Shown here in pieces: positions 40,909 to 55,314 of a DNA stretch of 64,000 nt (position 1 is the stretch's first letter; each line of letters opens with the position of its first letter). The notes beneath the pieces are model-generated. The model had not been told where the DNA came from. It searched no databases and was given only the letters and a program-made list of their open reading frames with translations. The position numbers and the translations under genes were made by a program. The stretch is from Planctomycetota bacterium. GTDB taxonomy: Bacteria > Planctomycetota > UBA1135 > UBA2386. Location: contig OZ245006.1 in assembly GCA_965223545.1 (NCBI GenBank), positions 160,001 through 224,000 on the forward strand. The letters are read 5' to 3'.

Positions 40909-41541
40909 ATGCGAAGCAAGCGCGCCGGCTTCACGCTGATCGAGCTCCTGGTCGTCATCACCATCCTCGGCATCCTCGCCGCCACCCTGCTGCCCGACGT
41001 GTTGTCCGCCGGCAACACCGCCAACGTCGCCGCCGACGGCTTCAACCTGCGGCAGCACCACAAGTGGCAGTTCGACTACTACAAGAACAAGAAGATGAGC
41101 AACCCGCCGCGCGGCGGGCACGCCTTCGTCCTGGCCCCCTGGGTCAAGGGCATCATCACCAAGTCCGAGGAGAACCGGGACCGCTTCTTCACTCCGGGCC
41201 AGGAGCAGGATCCGAACTGGCAGGACCTCAAGGCAGAGGACGTCAATCAGATCTGGCGCTCGTTCGACGAGATCGACTCGACCGACACGCACTACGCCGG
41301 CCGCGCGCGCAAGCACTTCCGCGGGATGTGGGACGGCGAGGAGGCGCTGATGGCGAACGACAACGAGGAGGTCCCCGCCTTTGCCGACGGCACCATCAAC
41401 GTGCTGATGGCGAGCGGCGCGGTGCGTCCGCTGCTGCGCGGCGAAGACTTGGCCGAGTGGTGGGACGAGGACGACCCGGGCTACATCTTCCCGGTCGGTC
41501 AGGAGTCACCGATCGAGATGCTGCAGAAGCTCGAGCACTGA
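40909..41541 (+). CDS. Prepilin-type N-terminal cleavage/methylation domain protein (type II/IV pseudopilin)
   Basis: MRSKRAG|FTLIELLVVITILGIL and a degenerate H-X9-DG-like C-terminal motif (FADGTINVLMASGAV). Confidence 0.9.
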   Translation: MRSKRAGFTLIELLVVITILGILAATLLPDVLSAGNTANVAADGFNLRQHHKWQFDYYKNKKMSNPPRGGHAFVLAPWVKGIITKSEENRDRFFTPGQEQDPNWQDLKAEDVNQIWRSFDEIDSTDTHYAGRARKHFRGMWDGEEALMANDNEEVPAFADGTINVLMASGAVRPLLRGEDLAEWWDEDDPGYIFPVGQESPIEMLQKLEH

Positions 41542-41559
41542 GCGGCGGCGGACCCGCTC

Positions 41560-43863
41560 TCACCACGACGTGCGCCGCGGCTGCCCCAGCCGCTGGCGCC
41601 AGTAGACGAACGTCATCGCCGCGTCGTAGTCGTCGCTGCCGATGGCGTCGGCGTAGTCGACGTAGCGGAAGGCCACGCCGGCCTCGCCGCCGCGCCACAC
41701 CTCGACCGAGAGTTCGGTCTGCCAGTCCCACAGGCGGACGTCGAAGCTGCCGTCGGTATCGCTGTAGCCGCTCTGCAGCAGCCAACGCACCTTGCGGCTC
41801 GGGCGGGTGGTCACCGCGGCGAAGGCGTGGTGCGTCTCGCCGTCGAAGGTCACCAGGGTCGGCACCGGGTTGGGGTCGGGGTCGAAGTAGAAGTTGGTGA
41901 GCGTGCGACTCTCGACGTCGCTGAACACGTAGCTCAGGCTGAGGTCGAAGTCGTCGTCCCGCGACCAAGACGTGCTGAGCCCGGCGCTGCGCACCTCGGC
42001 CAGCGTCTGCGAGACGTCGTTCTCCCGCTGGCGCTCGCGGGCGAAGCTCGAGACCGACCACTGCTCGCGGCGGTAGCGCACGCCGAACTCGGTGGCGCGC
42101 GCCCGGTCCTCGGTGATCTCGTGCAGCTGCACCGCGTTCTGGCCGAACTGACGGTGCTCGGCCGAAAAGGTCCAGTGCGCATCCGGCCGCCAGTCGACCG
42201 AGGCGAGCCCGCCGTGGTTGCGCAGCGTGCCGCGGCGGAAGTCGCCGTCACCGGCCTCCAGATCCGGCACCGCCAGCTGCTCGCGCGCGCCGCCATAGCC
42301 GGCGGCGAGCCGCAGCCCACTGAGCGGTTCGACTTCCAGCTGCAGCGAGCCCTCGAGCTGGCGCTGCGCGGTGTGCTGGTCGAGCGTGGTCTGCACGGTG
42401 CTGCTGCCGCCGAGGCCGGTGTAGGTCACGGTCTCGGTCTGGTCGATGCGCATCTCCTCGCGGTGGTCGACCCAACGGGCGTCGAGCAACAGCGCGGTGC
42501 GGTCGCCGAGCTCCAGCGTCGCGGTGGCATCCAGGAGCCACGTGCGGCCGTCACCCTCGGCGAACGAGGTGATGCCGCTCTGGAACGCGCCGATGTCGAA
42601 GCCGGTGCCGGTGCCATCGCCGATCACCCGGCGCTCGAGATCGAGCACCCGGCCGCTGACCTCGAGGGTCAGCGGCGCGAGCGCGGCGGTCCACACCGCG
42701 CGGGCGCCCGGCCCGCGCAGCGCACTGCGGGCGGTGAAGTCCTCGCTCTCGATGAACGCGCTGTTGACCGGTGACGGCCGCGCGTAGACCCAGCGGTCGT
42801 GCTGCTGCTCCTCGCGGTACTCGACCGCGAGGAGCAGCGAAGTCGGTCCCAGCGGCGTGCGCACACCGACCTCGCTGCGATCGGTGTCGAGCTGGCGTGG
42901 ACTGGCGACGCCGGCCACCGCGGTCTGCGGCGTGAGATTGAGGTTGCCGATGCGGTTGGTCAGCCAAAACCCGTCGTCGTTGCTGCGCCGGAAGGAGGCA
43001 AACACCTCGACGTCGGCGAGCGGCTCGACACTGAGGCTGTAGTCGTGGCTCTGCTTCTTCTGCTGGACGCGGTGGTAGTCGCCCTCGGCGCGGTAGTGGA
43101 TGGCCGCCTTGTCGAAGCCCGCCGCGGCGCGGTAGGCCTGCTGCTTGGACATCTCGCCGCGCACGCTCTGGTAGGGGTCGCCGATGTCGCGCGCGCGCAG
43201 AGACAGCGCATCCAGCCAGGTGGGCTCGCCGGTGGCGAACAGCTCGAGCTCCGCCTCGCGCAGCAGGAACCCCCGGTCCAGATTGAGGTCGGTCTTGTAG
43301 CGGTCGCGCGAGCCATCGCGGTCGAGGAAGCGGTAGCCCGCCGCCAGCATCGCCGACCACTGCAGCGCTCCGTGCTCCGCCTCGACGTCGGGGACGGCCA
43401 CCGCCGGTTCACCGGTAACGGGCTGTCCGAGCCGCGCTCCCGCGGCCGCGCCGAGGCCGGCCCGGGGACGCAGGGGGTGCGCGCCCAGCGCCACGTCGAG
43501 CGGCGTGTCGTGACAGGCGGCACACGCCTGCGCGCGCACCGCCGGCACCTCGGGCCCGCGCTCGCCGGCGGCGCGCGCCGCGGTGTGGGCGGAGAGATCG
43601 CCGTGGCAGGCGGTGCAGGCGGTCTCGGCCGCCGTTTCGAGCAGGCCGGCGTGCGCCGAACGGCGCAGTGCCACCGTCGCGCCCGGATGGCACACGCGGC
43701 AGCTGGCGTCGTCCCGCCAGCCGCTGCCGTGCCATGCCGTCCCCGCCGTCGCGTGCCCGGACTCGGGCGCGCGGCCGCCGAGCACCCCCGCCAACGCCGA
43801 CCAGCCCAATAGCGCCAGTGCCCCAGAAAGCGCCCCCGCCCGACCCCAACGGCCACTGCTCAT
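41560..43863 (-). CDS. MtrB/PioB-like outer-membrane beta-barrel fused to an N-terminal triheme c-type domain
   Basis: Signal peptide, CRVCH, CTACH and CAACH, an Ala/Pro linker, then about 600 aa of alternating amphipathic strands. Its start overlaps the cytochrome stop (ATGA). Confidence 0.8.
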   Translation of the reverse strand: MSSGRWGRAGALSGALALLGWSALAGVLGGRAPESGHATAGTAWHGSGWRDDASCRVCHPGATVALRRSAHAGLLETAAETACTACHGDLSAHTAARAAGERGPEVPAVRAQACAACHDTPLDVALGAHPLRPRAGLGAAAGARLGQPVTGEPAVAVPDVEAEHGALQWSAMLAAGYRFLDRDGSRDRYKTDLNLDRGFLLREAELELFATGEPTWLDALSLRARDIGDPYQSVRGEMSKQQAYRAAAGFDKAAIHYRAEGDYHRVQQKKQSHDYSLSVEPLADVEVFASFRRSNDDGFWLTNRIGNLNLTPQTAVAGVASPRQLDTDRSEVGVRTPLGPTSLLLAVEYREEQQHDRWVYARPSPVNSAFIESEDFTARSALRGPGARAVWTAALAPLTLEVSGRVLDLERRVIGDGTGTGFDIGAFQSGITSFAEGDGRTWLLDATATLELGDRTALLLDARWVDHREEMRIDQTETVTYTGLGGSSTVQTTLDQHTAQRQLEGSLQLEVEPLSGLRLAAGYGGAREQLAVPDLEAGDGDFRRGTLRNHGGLASVDWRPDAHWTFSAEHRQFGQNAVQLHEITEDRARATEFGVRYRREQWSVSSFARERQRENDVSQTLAEVRSAGLSTSWSRDDDFDLSLSYVFSDVESRTLTNFYFDPDPNPVPTLVTFDGETHHAFAAVTTRPSRKVRWLLQSGYSDTDGSFDVRLWDWQTELSVEVWRGGEAGVAFRYVDYADAIGSDDYDAAMTFVYWRQRLGQPRRTSW

Positions 43864-45542
43864 CGGAACAGGAACCTCGAGTGGTTGCTGCCGTGCACCT
43901 CGGTGTGACACTGCAGGCAGTTGGTGAACACCGCGCCGCTGGTCTGATCGTGGAACGACGGGAAGTCCGCGTGGCACTGCAGACACAGCTGCTGGGTGCG
44001 GTGGTGGGTCAGCATGCGCTGGTTGGTGCTGCCGTGCGGAGCGTGGCAGATCGTGCAGCCGTCGCTGCGCGAGGCCTGGTGGGCGAACACGAACGGCCCG
44101 CGGTACTCGGTGTGACAGCGCACGCAGGACTCGGTGCGCAACGCGCGGTCGCGCAGCTTGGGGCGGGCCGAGTGCGGGTTGTGGCAGTCACTGCACGCCA
44201 TGTGCCCCTCGGGCACGGGGTGGTGGTTGGGCTTGTGAAACTCGGCGGCAACGTCGGTGTGGCACTTCGTGCAGCGCTCTTCCGCCTGCCGGCGGGTCTG
44301 CCCCGCCGGCGCCGCCGGCGAATGGCACGTCAGACAGGTGACCTCGTGCCGCTGGTGCGCCCCCAGCCGGACGTGCGCCAGGTGCGGGGTGTCATCGTGG
44401 CAGCGGCCGCAGGCCTGCAGCTGGTGGGCGCCGCTGGTGTCGCGCAGCGAATCCACCAACCGCGCCACGCCGCCGGAGCGGGCGTGCGCTTCGGCATTGT
44501 CGTGGCAACCGCCGCAGCCCTGTGCCAGCGGCAGGTCCAGGCCGCCCAACGAGGCGTGGATGGTACCGTGCAGGACCTCGAACGCGGGCGCGTGGCACTG
44601 CGCGCACAAGCGGTTGGTGGCGGCGGGCGCCCGGTACTCGCCCGTCTGCTGGTCGAGCCGCTGCTGGTCGGGCGATCGGGGGGCAACTGATTGGGGATCG
44701 AACCCACCCGCCCGCTCCGGCGCCGTCGGCTCGCGGTGCACGGTGTGGCAGCTGGTGCAGGTCAGACCATCCGACAGCAGCGGCTTGTCGCCCTCGCGCC
44801 AGTGGAAGTCCACCGGATCGACCCCCGCGTGGCACTCGCGGCAGGTCACGGCGCCGTCGGCGGCGTGGTCGGGACGCGTGATCAGCCGCGCCAGCCCGCC
44901 GGTCTCGACGTGCAGCGAACCGTTGCCGTGACAGCTCTCGCAGCCCTGCGCGTCGCGCCCGGCGCGCAGACTCGCGTGGCCGCCGTGGGCAAGCAGCTCG
45001 TCGCGGCGCGGATGGCACTGCAAGCACGTCGCGGCGCCCACCGGCTCGGCACTGCGGTCGAGCAGCGCCCGCCGCTCGAACCCGAGTCCCTCGTGCGGCA
45101 CGGCACCGGGCTCCTCGTGCACGGTATGACAGTCGGTGCAGCCCTTGCCCGCCTGCGCGAACCCCTCGGGGTCGCCGCCGTGCACCGCCATCTGGTCGGC
45201 GTGGCACTGCTGGCAGACAGCTCCCTGGACCTTCGCCGGCAGCTTCTGCGGATGGGTGATCAGCCGGGGCTCGTTGTCCTCGTGGTCACCGTGCGCCTGG
45301 CCCGGACCGTGGCAAGTCTCGCAGCCGCGCAGGCCGTCGACCGCCAGCACGCCGGCGTGCACCGAGGCGGCCAGCACCTCCCATTGGTCCTCGTGACAGT
45401 CTTTGCAGACCGCCTTGCCCAAGTACTCGCCGTGGCGGGGAAACGGCGCGGTGGGGTCCTGCGGCCGCGGCGCCAGGCCGGTGGCCAGCGCCGCCGCGAT
45501 CAAGTAGAGCGAAAGCCACGTTGCCGTGTGCCGGACGCGCAT
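43860..45542 (-). CDS. MtrA/DmsE-like multiheme cytochrome c with 18 CxxCH motifs
   Basis: Signal peptide and 18 CxxCH counted in the translation. It carries the MtrA/DmsE hallmarks HHPV.EG...CSDCHNPH, RGPFVFAH, CTICHAPHGS and C..CHTEVHGSNH. Confidence 0.92.
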   Translation of the reverse strand: MRVRHTATWLSLYLIAAALATGLAPRPQDPTAPFPRHGEYLGKAVCKDCHEDQWEVLAASVHAGVLAVDGLRGCETCHGPGQAHGDHEDNEPRLITHPQKLPAKVQGAVCQQCHADQMAVHGGDPEGFAQAGKGCTDCHTVHEEPGAVPHEGLGFERRALLDRSAEPVGAATCLQCHPRRDELLAHGGHASLRAGRDAQGCESCHGNGSLHVETGGLARLITRPDHAADGAVTCRECHAGVDPVDFHWREGDKPLLSDGLTCTSCHTVHREPTAPERAGGFDPQSVAPRSPDQQRLDQQTGEYRAPAATNRLCAQCHAPAFEVLHGTIHASLGGLDLPLAQGCGGCHDNAEAHARSGGVARLVDSLRDTSGAHQLQACGRCHDDTPHLAHVRLGAHQRHEVTCLTCHSPAAPAGQTRRQAEERCTKCHTDVAAEFHKPNHHPVPEGHMACSDCHNPHSARPKLRDRALRTESCVRCHTEYRGPFVFAHQASRSDGCTICHAPHGSTNQRMLTHHRTQQLCLQCHADFPSFHDQTSGAVFTNCLQCHTEVHGSNHSRFLFR

Positions 45543-45663
45543 GCCGTCGTTCTCGCGGGAAGGGGGTGTGGGGCACCGCGTCGACGCGACGCGCCGCTGG
45601 CACGGCGGTTACGGCTTTTGCGCGGTCTAAAAGCGGCATTCGACACTACAATCTCCAGGCTCG

Positions 45664-47034
45664 ATGCAACAGGGCCGGAAGTACTTCCTGCACAGCTACG
45701 GCTGCCAGATGAACAAGCTCGATTCCGAGCTGGTGGAGGCGCGCCTGCGCGACGCCGGCTACACCGCCGCCGACCGCGAGACCGAGGCCGACGTCGTCCT
45801 GCTGAACACCTGCTCGGTGCGCGAGCACGCCGAGGACAAGGTCTGGAGTCGCCTGGGCCGGCTGCGGCTGCAAAAGCAGCAGCGCCCCGACCTGGTGGTC
45901 GGCGTCCTCGGCTGCATGGCGCAGGAGCACCGCCGCAAGCTGCAGGCCCGCATGCCACACGTCGATCTGGTCGTCGGCCCCTCCGCCTTCGGCGACATCG
46001 AGGCCAAGGTGGCGCAGGCCCGTGCGGCGCGCCGGCCGGACACGCGGCGCGGCGCGGGCGTCCTGGCGGTGGACGACGGTGTCAGCGGCGACCGGATCCG
46101 CCGCGACCCGCGCGTGCGCCCACACCGCAGCCAGGCCTACGTCAGCGTGATGCGCGGCTGCAACATGCCGTGCAGCTACTGCATCGTCCCGGCGACGCGC
46201 GGCGCCGAGATCAGCCGTCCGATCGAGGTCATCGCCGAGGAAACCGAGCGGCTGATCGACGACGGCGTCACCGAGATCACCCTGCTCGGCCAGACCGTCA
46301 ACGCCTACGGCCGCGACCTCGGCCGCGACGTCACCCTGACCCGACTCCTGCACCGCCTGCACGAGATCGACGGGCTGCGCCGACTGGCGTTCATCACCTC
46401 GCACCCCAACTTCTTGTCGGCGGAGCTGATCGACGCGCTGGCGACCCTGCCGAAGGTGGCGCGCTTCCTACACCTGCCGGCACAGTCCGGCAGCAACGAC
46501 GTGCTGCGCGCGATGCGCCGGGGCTACACCGTCGAGCGCTACCTGCGCCGCGTCGACGCGCTGCTGGAACGGGTGCCCGACATGGAGCTGCACTCGGACT
46601 TCATCGTCGGCTACCCCGGCGAGACCGAGGCCGACGTCGCTGCCACCGTCGCCTTGATGGAACGCGTCCGCTTCGCGCAGAGCTACGTCTTCAAGTACTC
46701 CCCGCGCCCCGGCACGCTGGCGGCCGATCTCGCCGACGACGTCGAGCAGGCGGAGAAGGAGCGGCGCAACCAGCTGCTGCTGCAAGTGCAGGAGCGGCAC
46801 GGCATGCAGCGCAATCGGGCACTGGTCGGCACCGTCCAGGAGGTGCTGGTGGAGGGGCCGAGCCCGCGCGTGGCGGGTCGCATGGCCGGCCGCACGGCGC
46901 AGCATCGGATCGTGCACTTCGCCGGCGATGATGCGGGCCTGGTGGGGAGCTACGTACCGGTGCGCATCGACGAGGCGTTGCCGCACTCGCTGGTCGGCGA
47001 GTGCCTCGCGCTGGAGGCCGGGACCCGACCGTGA
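45664..47034 (+). CDS. miaB: tRNA-2-methylthio-N6-dimethylallyladenosine synthase
   Basis: SYGCQMNKLDSE, NTCSVRE, GCMAQ, radical SAM CNMPCSYC, LLGQTVNAYG, FKYSPRPGT and a TRAM domain. Confidence 0.96.
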   Translation: MQQGRKYFLHSYGCQMNKLDSELVEARLRDAGYTAADRETEADVVLLNTCSVREHAEDKVWSRLGRLRLQKQQRPDLVVGVLGCMAQEHRRKLQARMPHVDLVVGPSAFGDIEAKVAQARAARRPDTRRGAGVLAVDDGVSGDRIRRDPRVRPHRSQAYVSVMRGCNMPCSYCIVPATRGAEISRPIEVIAEETERLIDDGVTEITLLGQTVNAYGRDLGRDVTLTRLLHRLHEIDGLRRLAFITSHPNFLSAELIDALATLPKVARFLHLPAQSGSNDVLRAMRRGYTVERYLRRVDALLERVPDMELHSDFIVGYPGETEADVAATVALMERVRFAQSYVFKYSPRPGTLAADLADDVEQAEKERRNQLLLQVQERHGMQRNRALVGTVQEVLVEGPSPRVAGRMAGRTAQHRIVHFAGDDAGLVGSYVPVRIDEALPHSLVGECLALEAGTRP

Positions 47035-54133: not shown

Positions 54134-54261
54134 GCCTGCTAGCTGAGAGACGCTGACCGAGACGTAACCGGAGCCCTCTTCCGAGTCACTGGAAGTGACG
54201 CAGGGCCAGCTGCGCAAACGGTGCCCTTTGGTCCCCCCGCGTTGTGTCCCGGAGGTCGCCG

Positions 54262-55314
54262 ATGTTCGTTCCCCCGCGTTGCCCCAACTCAGCTTGCCCG
54301 CACAACCGCAGCCCGCGGCCCGGCTTCTTCGTACGCCGTGGCTACTACTACCCCAAGTGCCGCGCCCAAGGCGTGCCGCGCTTCCGCTGCCGCCATTGCC
54401 GGCAAGGCTTCTCGCGGCAGACGTTCCGCATGGATTACCGCGACCACAAGCCCGACCGCAACGCCTGGATCGTCATGTTGCTCTGCTCTGGCCTGGGCCT
54501 GCGACAGACCGCACGCCTGGCCGGGCTCACGGCGCGCAACACCGAGATGAAGTTCCGCAAGATCGGTCGTCACGTCCGCCGCCTGAACAACAACTTACGG
54601 GGTGACCTGCCGGTCGGCTCGAGCTTGCAGTTCGACGAACTCGAGAGCTACGAGGGCCGCCGCAACACGCGGCCCCTGACGCTGCCTGTCCTGATCGAGC
54701 GCGGGAGCCGCTTCATCCTCGCAGCGCGGTCGGCCCCGATCCGCCCAGGTGGCCCCAAACCGGCTGCGCGCCGGCGAGCGATAGAGGCCGACGCGCGGCG
54801 GTTTGGCCGGCGGCCGTCGCGGTCGCGCGCGGCAACGCGCAATGCGCTGTGCCGGGGCGCGCGCGCTTGCACTCGGTTGACCACCGTGTTGCTCGAAACG
54901 GACGAGAAAACGACCTACTCAGGACTCGCGAGGGGCATTTTCGGCGCGCGGCTCGAGCACCGGCGAACACCGAGCACGCTGCCGCGCGAGACCTGGAACC
55001 CGCTGTTCGCGATCAACCATACCGAGGCAATGGCGCGCGACCTCAACGGTCGTCTGCGGCGCGAGTCCTGGCTGGTCAGCAAGAAGCGCTGTTTCCTCAA
55101 CCTGCAGCTGCACATCTACACCGCGTACCGCAACTTCACGCGACCGCGCTTCAACTTCGACCGAGACACGCCGGCGATGCTGGTTGGCTGGCTCCCCCAG
55201 AAGTTGCGGCTGAACCAGGTGCTATCCTGGCGCCAGGACTGGGGCACGCGCAGCGGCCATCCGCTGGATCGAAACGCAAAACCGATCGAGAACTTCCTGA
55301 AGAGCTCTGCCTGA
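54262..55314 (+). CDS. IS1-family-like transposase (Zn ribbon + HTH + RNase H-like core in a single ORF)
   Basis: GGAGG RBS, CPNSAC...CRHC zinc ribbon, GLRQTARL HTH, FDELES, TDEK..Y and RLRRESWLVSK. Confidence 0.82.
   Translation: MFVPPRCPNSACPHNRSPRPGFFVRRGYYYPKCRAQGVPRFRCRHCRQGFSRQTFRMDYRDHKPDRNAWIVMLLCSGLGLRQTARLAGLTARNTEMKFRKIGRHVRRLNNNLRGDLPVGSSLQFDELESYEGRRNTRPLTLPVLIERGSRFILAARSAPIRPGGPKPAARRRAIEADARRFGRRPSRSRAATRNALCRGARACTRLTTVLLETDEKTTYSGLARGIFGARLEHRRTPSTLPRETWNPLFAINHTEAMARDLNGRLRRESWLVSKKRCFLNLQLHIYTAYRNFTRPRFNFDRDTPAMLVGWLPQKLRLNQVLSWRQDWGTRSGHPLDRNAKPIENFLKSSA

Follow-up and report, generated by a model that had tools for sequence, protein, structure and literature searches.

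A modular, extended MtrAB-type cytochrome–porin gene pair in a Planctomycetota bacterium and its relatives

Descriptions of MtrA-type conduits portray them as decahemes dependent on soluble shuttles to cross a periplasm of ~235 Å. In the structure of the Mtr complex, MtrB encloses the C-terminal half of MtrA, heme A1 stands ~20 Å into the periplasm and the chain measures 80 Å (PMC7198977); the Shewanella periplasm is 235 ± 37 Å wide, and MtrAB stands too far from CymA for electrons to pass without shuttles (PMC5971433). MtrA itself has been proposed to derive from duplication (PMC7198977), and multiheme cytochromes to evolve via grafting and pruning of modules (PMC9250108). The 64,000-nucleotide stretch of DNA analysed here (the window: contig OZ245006.1, positions 160,001 to 224,000, from a Planctomycetota bacterium, assembly GCA_965223545.1) holds a two-gene pair in which an MtrA/DmsE-type cytochrome with 18 heme motifs precedes a predicted MtrB-like porin with three of its own. 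The pair is a real, conserved and apparently undescribed extended form of the MtrAB system with a modular build; our literature search, which left subscription papers largely outside, found neither 14-, 18- or 22-heme MtrA proteins nor multiheme arms on MtrB-like porins described.

The cytochrome resembles the MtrA/DmsE decahemes (TIGR03508; Shewanella baltica MtrA, 6R2Q chain A) in that its C-terminal 250 residues align heme for heme, share the fold and are encoded next to a barrel gene; it differs in having 18 hemes against 10, via two added copies of hemes 1–4, and in the loss of the CxxCHxxH histidine after core heme 4. Its partner has, like MtrB/PioB (TIGR03509; 6R2Q chain B), a predicted 26-strand barrel and a gene directly after that of the cytochrome, but carries three CXXCH motifs at the N-terminus (0–8 in relatives), where the N-terminus of MtrB is only short and has a CxxC motif (PMC5971433, PMC12175506). 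Geobacter OmcK/OmcL (GSU2203/GSU2204; NF041028, NF041027) is likewise a two-gene pair of decaheme and porin (PMC10553843), and NCBIfam calls the GSU2204 family CXXCH-containing, as the window porin is. However, the cytochrome reaches 274 bits against an NF041028 cut-off of 325 and the porin 10.2 bits against an NF041027 cut-off of 350 (E 0.23; relatives up to 41 bits), OmcK-type proteins are decahemes by family name, and module expansion is not described in the available text of PMC10553843. MtoAB and PioAB are also MtrAB-type pairs without a linked surface cytochrome; these have ten hemes, and the N-terminal extension of PioA has no heme motif (PMC10654088). Of the PCC3/PCC4 clusters, PCC3 shares very heme-rich periplasmic cytochromes with a porin, and Cyc2 shares the fusion of heme to porin (PMC5566968); unlike the two-gene window pair, the PCC3 cluster includes a surface cytochrome and an inner-membrane protein, and Cyc2 fuses a single heme to a smaller barrel and lacks a separate MtrA partner. 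Divergent Mtr-like clusters of peat bacteria have 8–13 hemes in the available text, the supplements of which could list higher counts (bioRxiv 10.64898/2026.05.27.727921), and Planctomycetes are not mentioned in the main text of an MtrCAB survey (PMC8805035).

The cytochrome gene is laid out as follows.

43860..45542, minus strand: 18-heme MtrA/DmsE-type cytochrome c, 560 amino acids, by open reading frame, motif count, hidden Markov model (HMM), and sequence and fold match to MtrA
45459..45542, minus strand: N-terminal hydrophobic leader, about residues 1–28, probable Sec signal peptide by hydropathy, without lipobox
45117..45407, minus strand: added tetraheme module 1, hemes 1–4, residues 46–142, with conserved non-motif histidines 62, 84, 121 and 142
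44736..45026, minus strand: added tetraheme module 2, hemes 5–8, residues 173–269, with histidines 189, 211, 247 and 269
44607..44735, minus strand: linker from module 2 to the decaheme core, of variable length and low model confidence
44322..44606, minus strand: ancestral module 3, hemes 9–12, equivalent to MtrA hemes 1–4, without the CxxCHxxH histidine after its fourth heme
43860..44273, minus strand: C-terminal hemes 13–18, equivalent to MtrA hemes 5–10, predicted to lie inside the barrel (placement by analogy with 6R2Q, PMC7198977)

The protein consists of three homologous tetraheme modules followed by the six C-terminal hemes of MtrA/DmsE. Its 560 residues hold exactly 18 CXXCH motifs, as a first-pass annotation of this DNA had counted, and these take up all 36 cysteines; the likeness of hemes 1–4, 5–8 and 9–12 that it had noticed is borne out by motif spacings of 28/36/25, 28/33/28 and 30/35/25 and by the linkers RLIT, RLIT and RLV. 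The same annotation had proposed triplication of the N-terminal module and named a lack of significant similarity among the modules beforehand as a possible refutation; the modules proved mutually similar. Compared with shuffles that kept the CXXCH positions, hemes 1–4 and 5–8 are identical at 44 of 101 positions (z 8.2) and hemes 5–8 and 9–12 at 41 of 99 (z 5.6); hemes 1–4 and 9–12 (26 of 105, z 2.1) resemble each other weakly within the single protein, where none of the modules resembles hemes 13–16 (z 0.9–1.3). At family level (80 proteins) module profiles cross-score at 38–64 bits, against 11–16 for shuffles and 16–17 for hemes 13–16. That hemes 9–18 reproduce the decaheme pattern also held: TIGR03508 gives 255.9 bits against a cut-off of 192.2, a score that sums three stretches, the best being residues 311–555; the protein departs from that family in having 18 motifs instead of ten. 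MtrA (6R2Q_A) is matched in sequence by residues 295–555 (E 9e-31) and is the top fold match (E 6e-9) of the predicted apo model, which has a mean predicted local distance difference test (pLDDT) score of 85.5 and superposes on 6r2q_A over residues 307–559 (Z 10.9, root-mean-square deviation (rmsd) 3.9, 232 aligned). The leader was called from hydropathy (1.95 over 15 residues); a lipoprotein anchor was ruled out, a lipobox being found in 2 of 99 family members.

A duplicated segment introduced by assembly could in principle mimic such an architecture, and we regard this as so improbable as to be negligible, in keeping with the first-pass view. The repeats are merely 25–44% identical to each other. 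Among Logan contigs, one from run X1 spans the whole 4.4-kb stretch and one from run X4 spans 43596–45470 with all 18 motifs, each with zero differences to the window; since both runs belong to one study and may be the source of the window sequence, the homologues are the stronger argument. Besides the query, the search returned 119 proteins, with 18 motifs in 98, 10 in 13, 14 in five (two of which look like N-terminal fragments), 17 in two (both truncated) and 12 in one, and the 98 independent sequences share the 18-motif architecture. Exactly 18 motifs are kept in 98 of the 106 top homologues, down to ~34% identity, and the spacing between the motifs of hemes 4 and 5 is nearly constant (36–41 in most 18-heme homologues). 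Named 18-heme homologues are mostly labelled Planctomycetota. A pattern scan of genome contigs gave three close loci; 28 of 201 genomes in a class sample match at E 1e-40 or better, and 28 of 401 in a phylum sample match an alignment of 22- and 18-heme proteins. As judged from these sequences the distribution of the system is patchy, incomplete genomes limiting what absence means.

Across the phylum the cytochrome has 10, 14, 18 or 22 hemes, the 22-heme form comprising four modules and the core (15 proteins). In a module tree of 106 rows and 105 columns, with bootstrap not fully settled, module 3 clusters with hemes 1–4 of ordinary decahemes (support 97/87), and therefore the two modules before it are the added copies; modules 1 and 2 share a branch (65/99 on 105 columns). 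The 14-heme protein P0095, which is also that of locus L039, follows module 1 up to the third heme and module 2 afterwards, and reads as a hybrid of the two that would have arisen by in-frame loss of one module. All 129 extended proteins examined lack the histidine that stands three residues after core heme 4, a residue retained by 23 of 23 decahemes and by 268 of 268 added modules. A loss common to the whole extended family is suggestive of a single origin, with which the core tree agrees weakly (support 78).

Other variants were seen alongside. Shortened 8-heme forms stand beside heme-less porins in L080 and L081, and a 22-heme-type gene with one in-frame TAG adjoins an 8-heme porin in L166/L201 (G508:C48). 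A different four-heme repeat, with spacing 27/19/24/38, is inserted after heme 4 of MtrA relatives to give 14, 18, 22 or 26 hemes (P0343, P0354, P0365, P0368, P0380, P0361, P0371, P0382, P0384, P0388 and P0396), apparently a second, independent way of extending MtrA. Proteins of ~1050 amino acids with 42 CXXCH motifs (many rows, P0322–P0397), labelled FCB group, Krumholzibacteria, Latescibacterota and Gemmatimonadaceae, gave no match to the MtrA core profile. A metagenome scan with the 22-heme alignment returned ordinary forms (among the matches listed, 77 of 80 loci have 10–11 hemes and all 63 detected porins are heme-less) and has no bearing on the extended ones.

The first-pass annotation had the cytochrome modules right and overlooked the overlapping partner gene downstream, with its further module copy.

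41560..43863, minus strand: partner gene, 767 amino acids, heme-bearing MtrB-like porin, whose start codon overlaps the cytochrome stop (ATGA)
43477..43701, minus strand: N-terminal triheme domain of the porin, CXXCH at 55, 83 and 114 with three conserved non-motif histidines, a truncated module copy
41584..43365, minus strand: predicted 26-strand beta-barrel, residues 167–760, from the strand list of the model (best structural match 6r2q_B)

The porin is thus predicted to be an MtrB-type 26-strand barrel that carries three hemes of the cytochrome's own module. Its model finds MtrB 6r2q_B as best fold match (E 3.1e-13; Z 24.5, rmsd 4.0, 535 aligned; next entry Z 18.3). A profile–profile comparison relates its heme domain to module 3 with a probability of 96.7%, and 31 porin heme domains reach a median of 31–35 bits with the module profiles, where shuffles average 13–15 (maximum 29–35), and 12 bits with the six-heme core profile; in the module tree the porin domains form a single clade (98/98). 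A porin homologue follows the cytochrome directly in 30 of 30 loci examined, and in the 22 of these with an 18-heme cytochrome, our own genome included, it has three motifs in 19, four in 2 and none in 1. Among 131 proteins of at least 600 amino acids that a search with the porin retrieved, two of which are cytochromes, CXXCH counts are 0 (58), 1 (8), 2 (1), 3 (38), 4 (16), 5 (1) and 8 (7). The interval 41300–45900 showed neither a sigma-70 promoter nor a terminator pattern, and no RNA data set is listed as holding the sequence. Porins P0134, P0136, P0137 and P0138 have a single CXXCH followed by a conserved extra cysteine (GGC), which may connect them to the GSU2204 type with its single motif and, more speculatively, to the MtrB CxxC.

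The correspondence of the two proteins to MtrA and MtrB in sequence and fold, the fixed gene pairing and the modular heme expansion are established by these data. Beyond this we think it somewhat more likely than not that the two genes form an MtrAB-type porin–cytochrome conduit across the outer membrane, with the added modules reaching into the periplasm. By analogy with MtrA in MtrB, the C-terminal decaheme would be sheathed in the 26-strand barrel; since the N-terminus of MtrA faces the periplasm, N-terminal additions should point inward, and the two added modules (8 hemes) would prolong the chain in that direction. If collinear, at ~9 Å per heme, they would add ~70 Å and take the 80 Å chain of MtrA to ~150 Å, with ~90 Å in the periplasm. 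The triheme arm of the porin may run alongside the added modules and act as a brace or as a side entry. The extension, whose periplasm-reaching role we infer by reasoning from the MtrA structure, might collect electrons near inner-membrane quinol oxidoreductases (NapC/NrfH-like, Rieske/cytochrome b or alternative complex III (ACIII)) and make soluble shuttles less necessary.

Several observations weigh against this proposal. The heme 8–9 linker is poorly predicted (pLDDT 48–55 at residues 271–290) and the corresponding motif spacing ranges from 20 to 102 residues among 18-heme homologues, so the chain may not be straight. No inner-membrane redox partner lies among the housekeeping neighbours of the pair in the window's own lineage. 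In the phylum search many 14-heme and two 18-heme cytochromes are paired with heme-less porins (13 of 30 loci), which makes the porin arm dispensable. One heme of the 18-heme family lacks an invariant sixth histidine. The porin has no match to TIGR03509 even at E 1 and is 12–13% identical to MtrB, and TonB-dependent receptors likewise reach Z 15–18 against its model. The lack of a TIGR03509 match, together with a TonB-dependent receptor label on homologue P0134 and the housekeeping neighbourhood, would suit a heme-plugged barrel that serves as a pore or transporter and a cytochrome engaged in reductive metal uptake or another periplasmic task, outside respiratory extracellular electron transfer. 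We consider this quite improbable, given 26 strands with a clear best match to MtrB, the invariable pairing with an MtrA-type cytochrome and the weak TIGR03509 match of the distant porin relative P0194 (E 1.2e-5). The porin has zero NCBIfam matches at E 0.001; its profile retrieves heme-domain matches only from PDB sequences, without finding MtrB, and ESM Atlas leads are all below 0.9 (best 0.87), one cluster (0.86) having PF11854 MtrB_PioB in 31% of its members.

Heme ligation was considered across the family. Wires of bis-histidine hemes need a distal histidine for each heme. Seventeen non-motif histidines occur in at least 98 of 99 aligned family members, so that the 18-heme family has 17 near-invariant histidines for 18 hemes, candidates for the eighteenth ligand being H390 (58/96), H440 (66/96) and H554 (77/96). 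The 22-heme subfamily has 22 invariant non-motif histidines in 15 of 15 proteins, having gained in its own chain a replacement for the one missing after core heme 4. Considering that 13 of 30 loci pair cores lacking this histidine with heme-less porins and that the 22-heme subfamily has its own replacement, we did not adopt the idea of the porin arm as its obligatory source.

In the 30 loci of the phylum search, hemes of cytochrome + porin are 10+0 (2 loci), 10 without a detected porin (3), 14+0 (11), 14+4 (2), 18+0 (2), 18+3 (1, the window), 18+4 (2), 22+4 (2) and 22+8 (3), with a cut 21+8 (1) and an interrupted gene +8 (1); porins thus have 0, 3, 4 or 8 hemes and a pair at most 30. The first-pass idea that wire length has been tuned by adding modules stands in so far as module number varies (10/14/18/22) and fell too by deletion; tuning in an adaptive sense is conjectural, and the linker is variable. 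It is possible, if rather doubtful, that in a conduit of MtrAB type the extra modules fold beside the barrel mouth and form with the porin heme arm a multi-entry hub or electron store, module number drifting by repeat recombination. The variable heme 8–9 linker, the P0095 in-frame hybrid nested among 18-heme forms and porin arms spanning 0 to 8 hemes agree with this, as does the core tree (a quick tree), on which the heme-number labels change at least 8 times where the minimum is 3. Yet the constant 18 motifs and nearly fixed heme 4–5 spacing of the top homologues look like selection on architecture, and longer cytochromes tend toward longer porin arms (14 hemes: 0/4; 18: 0/3/4; 22: 4/8), kin among these being non-independent. 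The boldest form of the conduit proposal, which we hold to be unlikely, has fixed, shuttle-free wires crossing most of the periplasm and docked directly on inner-membrane quinol oxidoreductases, in which a tetraheme block lengthens the cytochrome (14, 18, 22) and a parallel porin arm (3, 4, 8) up to 30 hemes, module number being matched to envelope width in different Planctomycetota.

The pair is a two-gene unit between miaB-ribD and a pilin-like gene, a HEAT protein, HU, mnmA and yajC, an order preserved around the pair in many same-family genomes. There is no linked MtrC/OmcA surface decaheme in the 17-kb window region or the same-order loci; two unlinked MtrC-like decahemes of the genome score 206 and 208 bits against a cut-off of 209.3. 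Elsewhere the genome encodes CcsB, an ACIII-like cluster, NapA with Rieske/cytochrome b and an NrfH-like protein (50% identical). The labels ACIII, yajC, mnmA and HU are presumed assignments from sequence recognition and partial HMM matches, below cut-off standard. In favour of the conduit proposal, 18–22-heme cytochromes stand beside quinol-linked genes in four of 17 relatives' loci taken for comparison: an NrfH-like pentaheme, a cytochrome b561 fused to a multiheme and a c554-like tetraheme in L195, a probable NrfH-like pentaheme in L201 (5 motifs, by motif count), and Rieske/cytochrome b in L198, where a nonaheme adjoins, and, by gene layout, in L199. Long-wire relatives often lie among further multiheme genes as well; at the 14+0 loci neither kind of neighbour was found among the genes scanned.

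Export seems to us somewhat more likely than uptake. Since the locus lacks MtrC, the exposed terminal heme would exchange electrons with soluble partners outside the cell or with a surface cytochrome encoded elsewhere. Use of the same conduit for electron uptake, in which Fe(II), humic substances or sulfur would be oxidised after the manner of MtoAB/PioAB to feed Rieske/cytochrome b or ACIII, is a serious possibility that we rank somewhat below an even chance; it concerns direction only and overlaps with the conduit readings above. In its favour, the locus has no MtrC, MtrC-like genes occur in 13 of 25 carriers and 12 of 25 same-family genomes without the system, and L198 has its Rieske/cytochrome b neighbours. 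On the other hand, MtrAB is capable of reducing chelated, soluble Fe(III) in the absence of MtrC (PMC7198977), and the conserved candidate ligands are histidines with no methionine replacement, while PioA-type oxidases use His/Met hemes; the latter point is weak, since MtoA is all bis-His (both bioRxiv 10.64898/2026.01.22.701106). Dependence of the system on MtrC-like genes was not seen in the 25 carriers and 25 non-carriers.

Further redox loci were recorded in the same genome (G000). At L048:6297-17465 (G000:C1 ~6.212-6.223 Mb) two MtrC/OmcA-like decahemes flank an NrfH-like pentaheme, a 584-aa protein and a 13-motif frame, likely a second conduit cluster. L050:6145-15822 (G000:C1 ~4.761-4.771 Mb) holds 11-, 7- and 23-heme cytochromes, a 571-aa protein and a ferredoxin/flavoprotein fusion, and in L052:6737-12896 (G000:C1 ~5.00 Mb) NapA lies beside a tetraheme, an octaheme cytochrome, cytochrome b and a Rieske protein. 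In five relatives (L031, L032, L033, L040 and L041) the gene directly upstream of the 18-heme gene, on the same strand, encodes a conserved protein of 830 aa that has two cytochrome c domains of planctomycete type (PF07635; one protein scanned). In the window, 54244-55314 (minus strand), upstream of a sugar-transferase gene, is an open reading frame that by eye we take to resemble an insertion-sequence transposase.

Finally, the natural series of 10, 14, 18 and 22 hemes, together with porins bearing hemes of the same module, provides ready material for testing how electrons traverse the periplasm and how multiheme wires grow through module duplication, as well as length-graded parts for engineered electron conduits. 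It is indicative of extracellular electron transfer in a number of seemingly uncultured Planctomycetota lineages overlooked by MtrB HMMs, and the addition of modules in both cytochrome and porin suggests that the electron path into the envelope is lengthened in this way.

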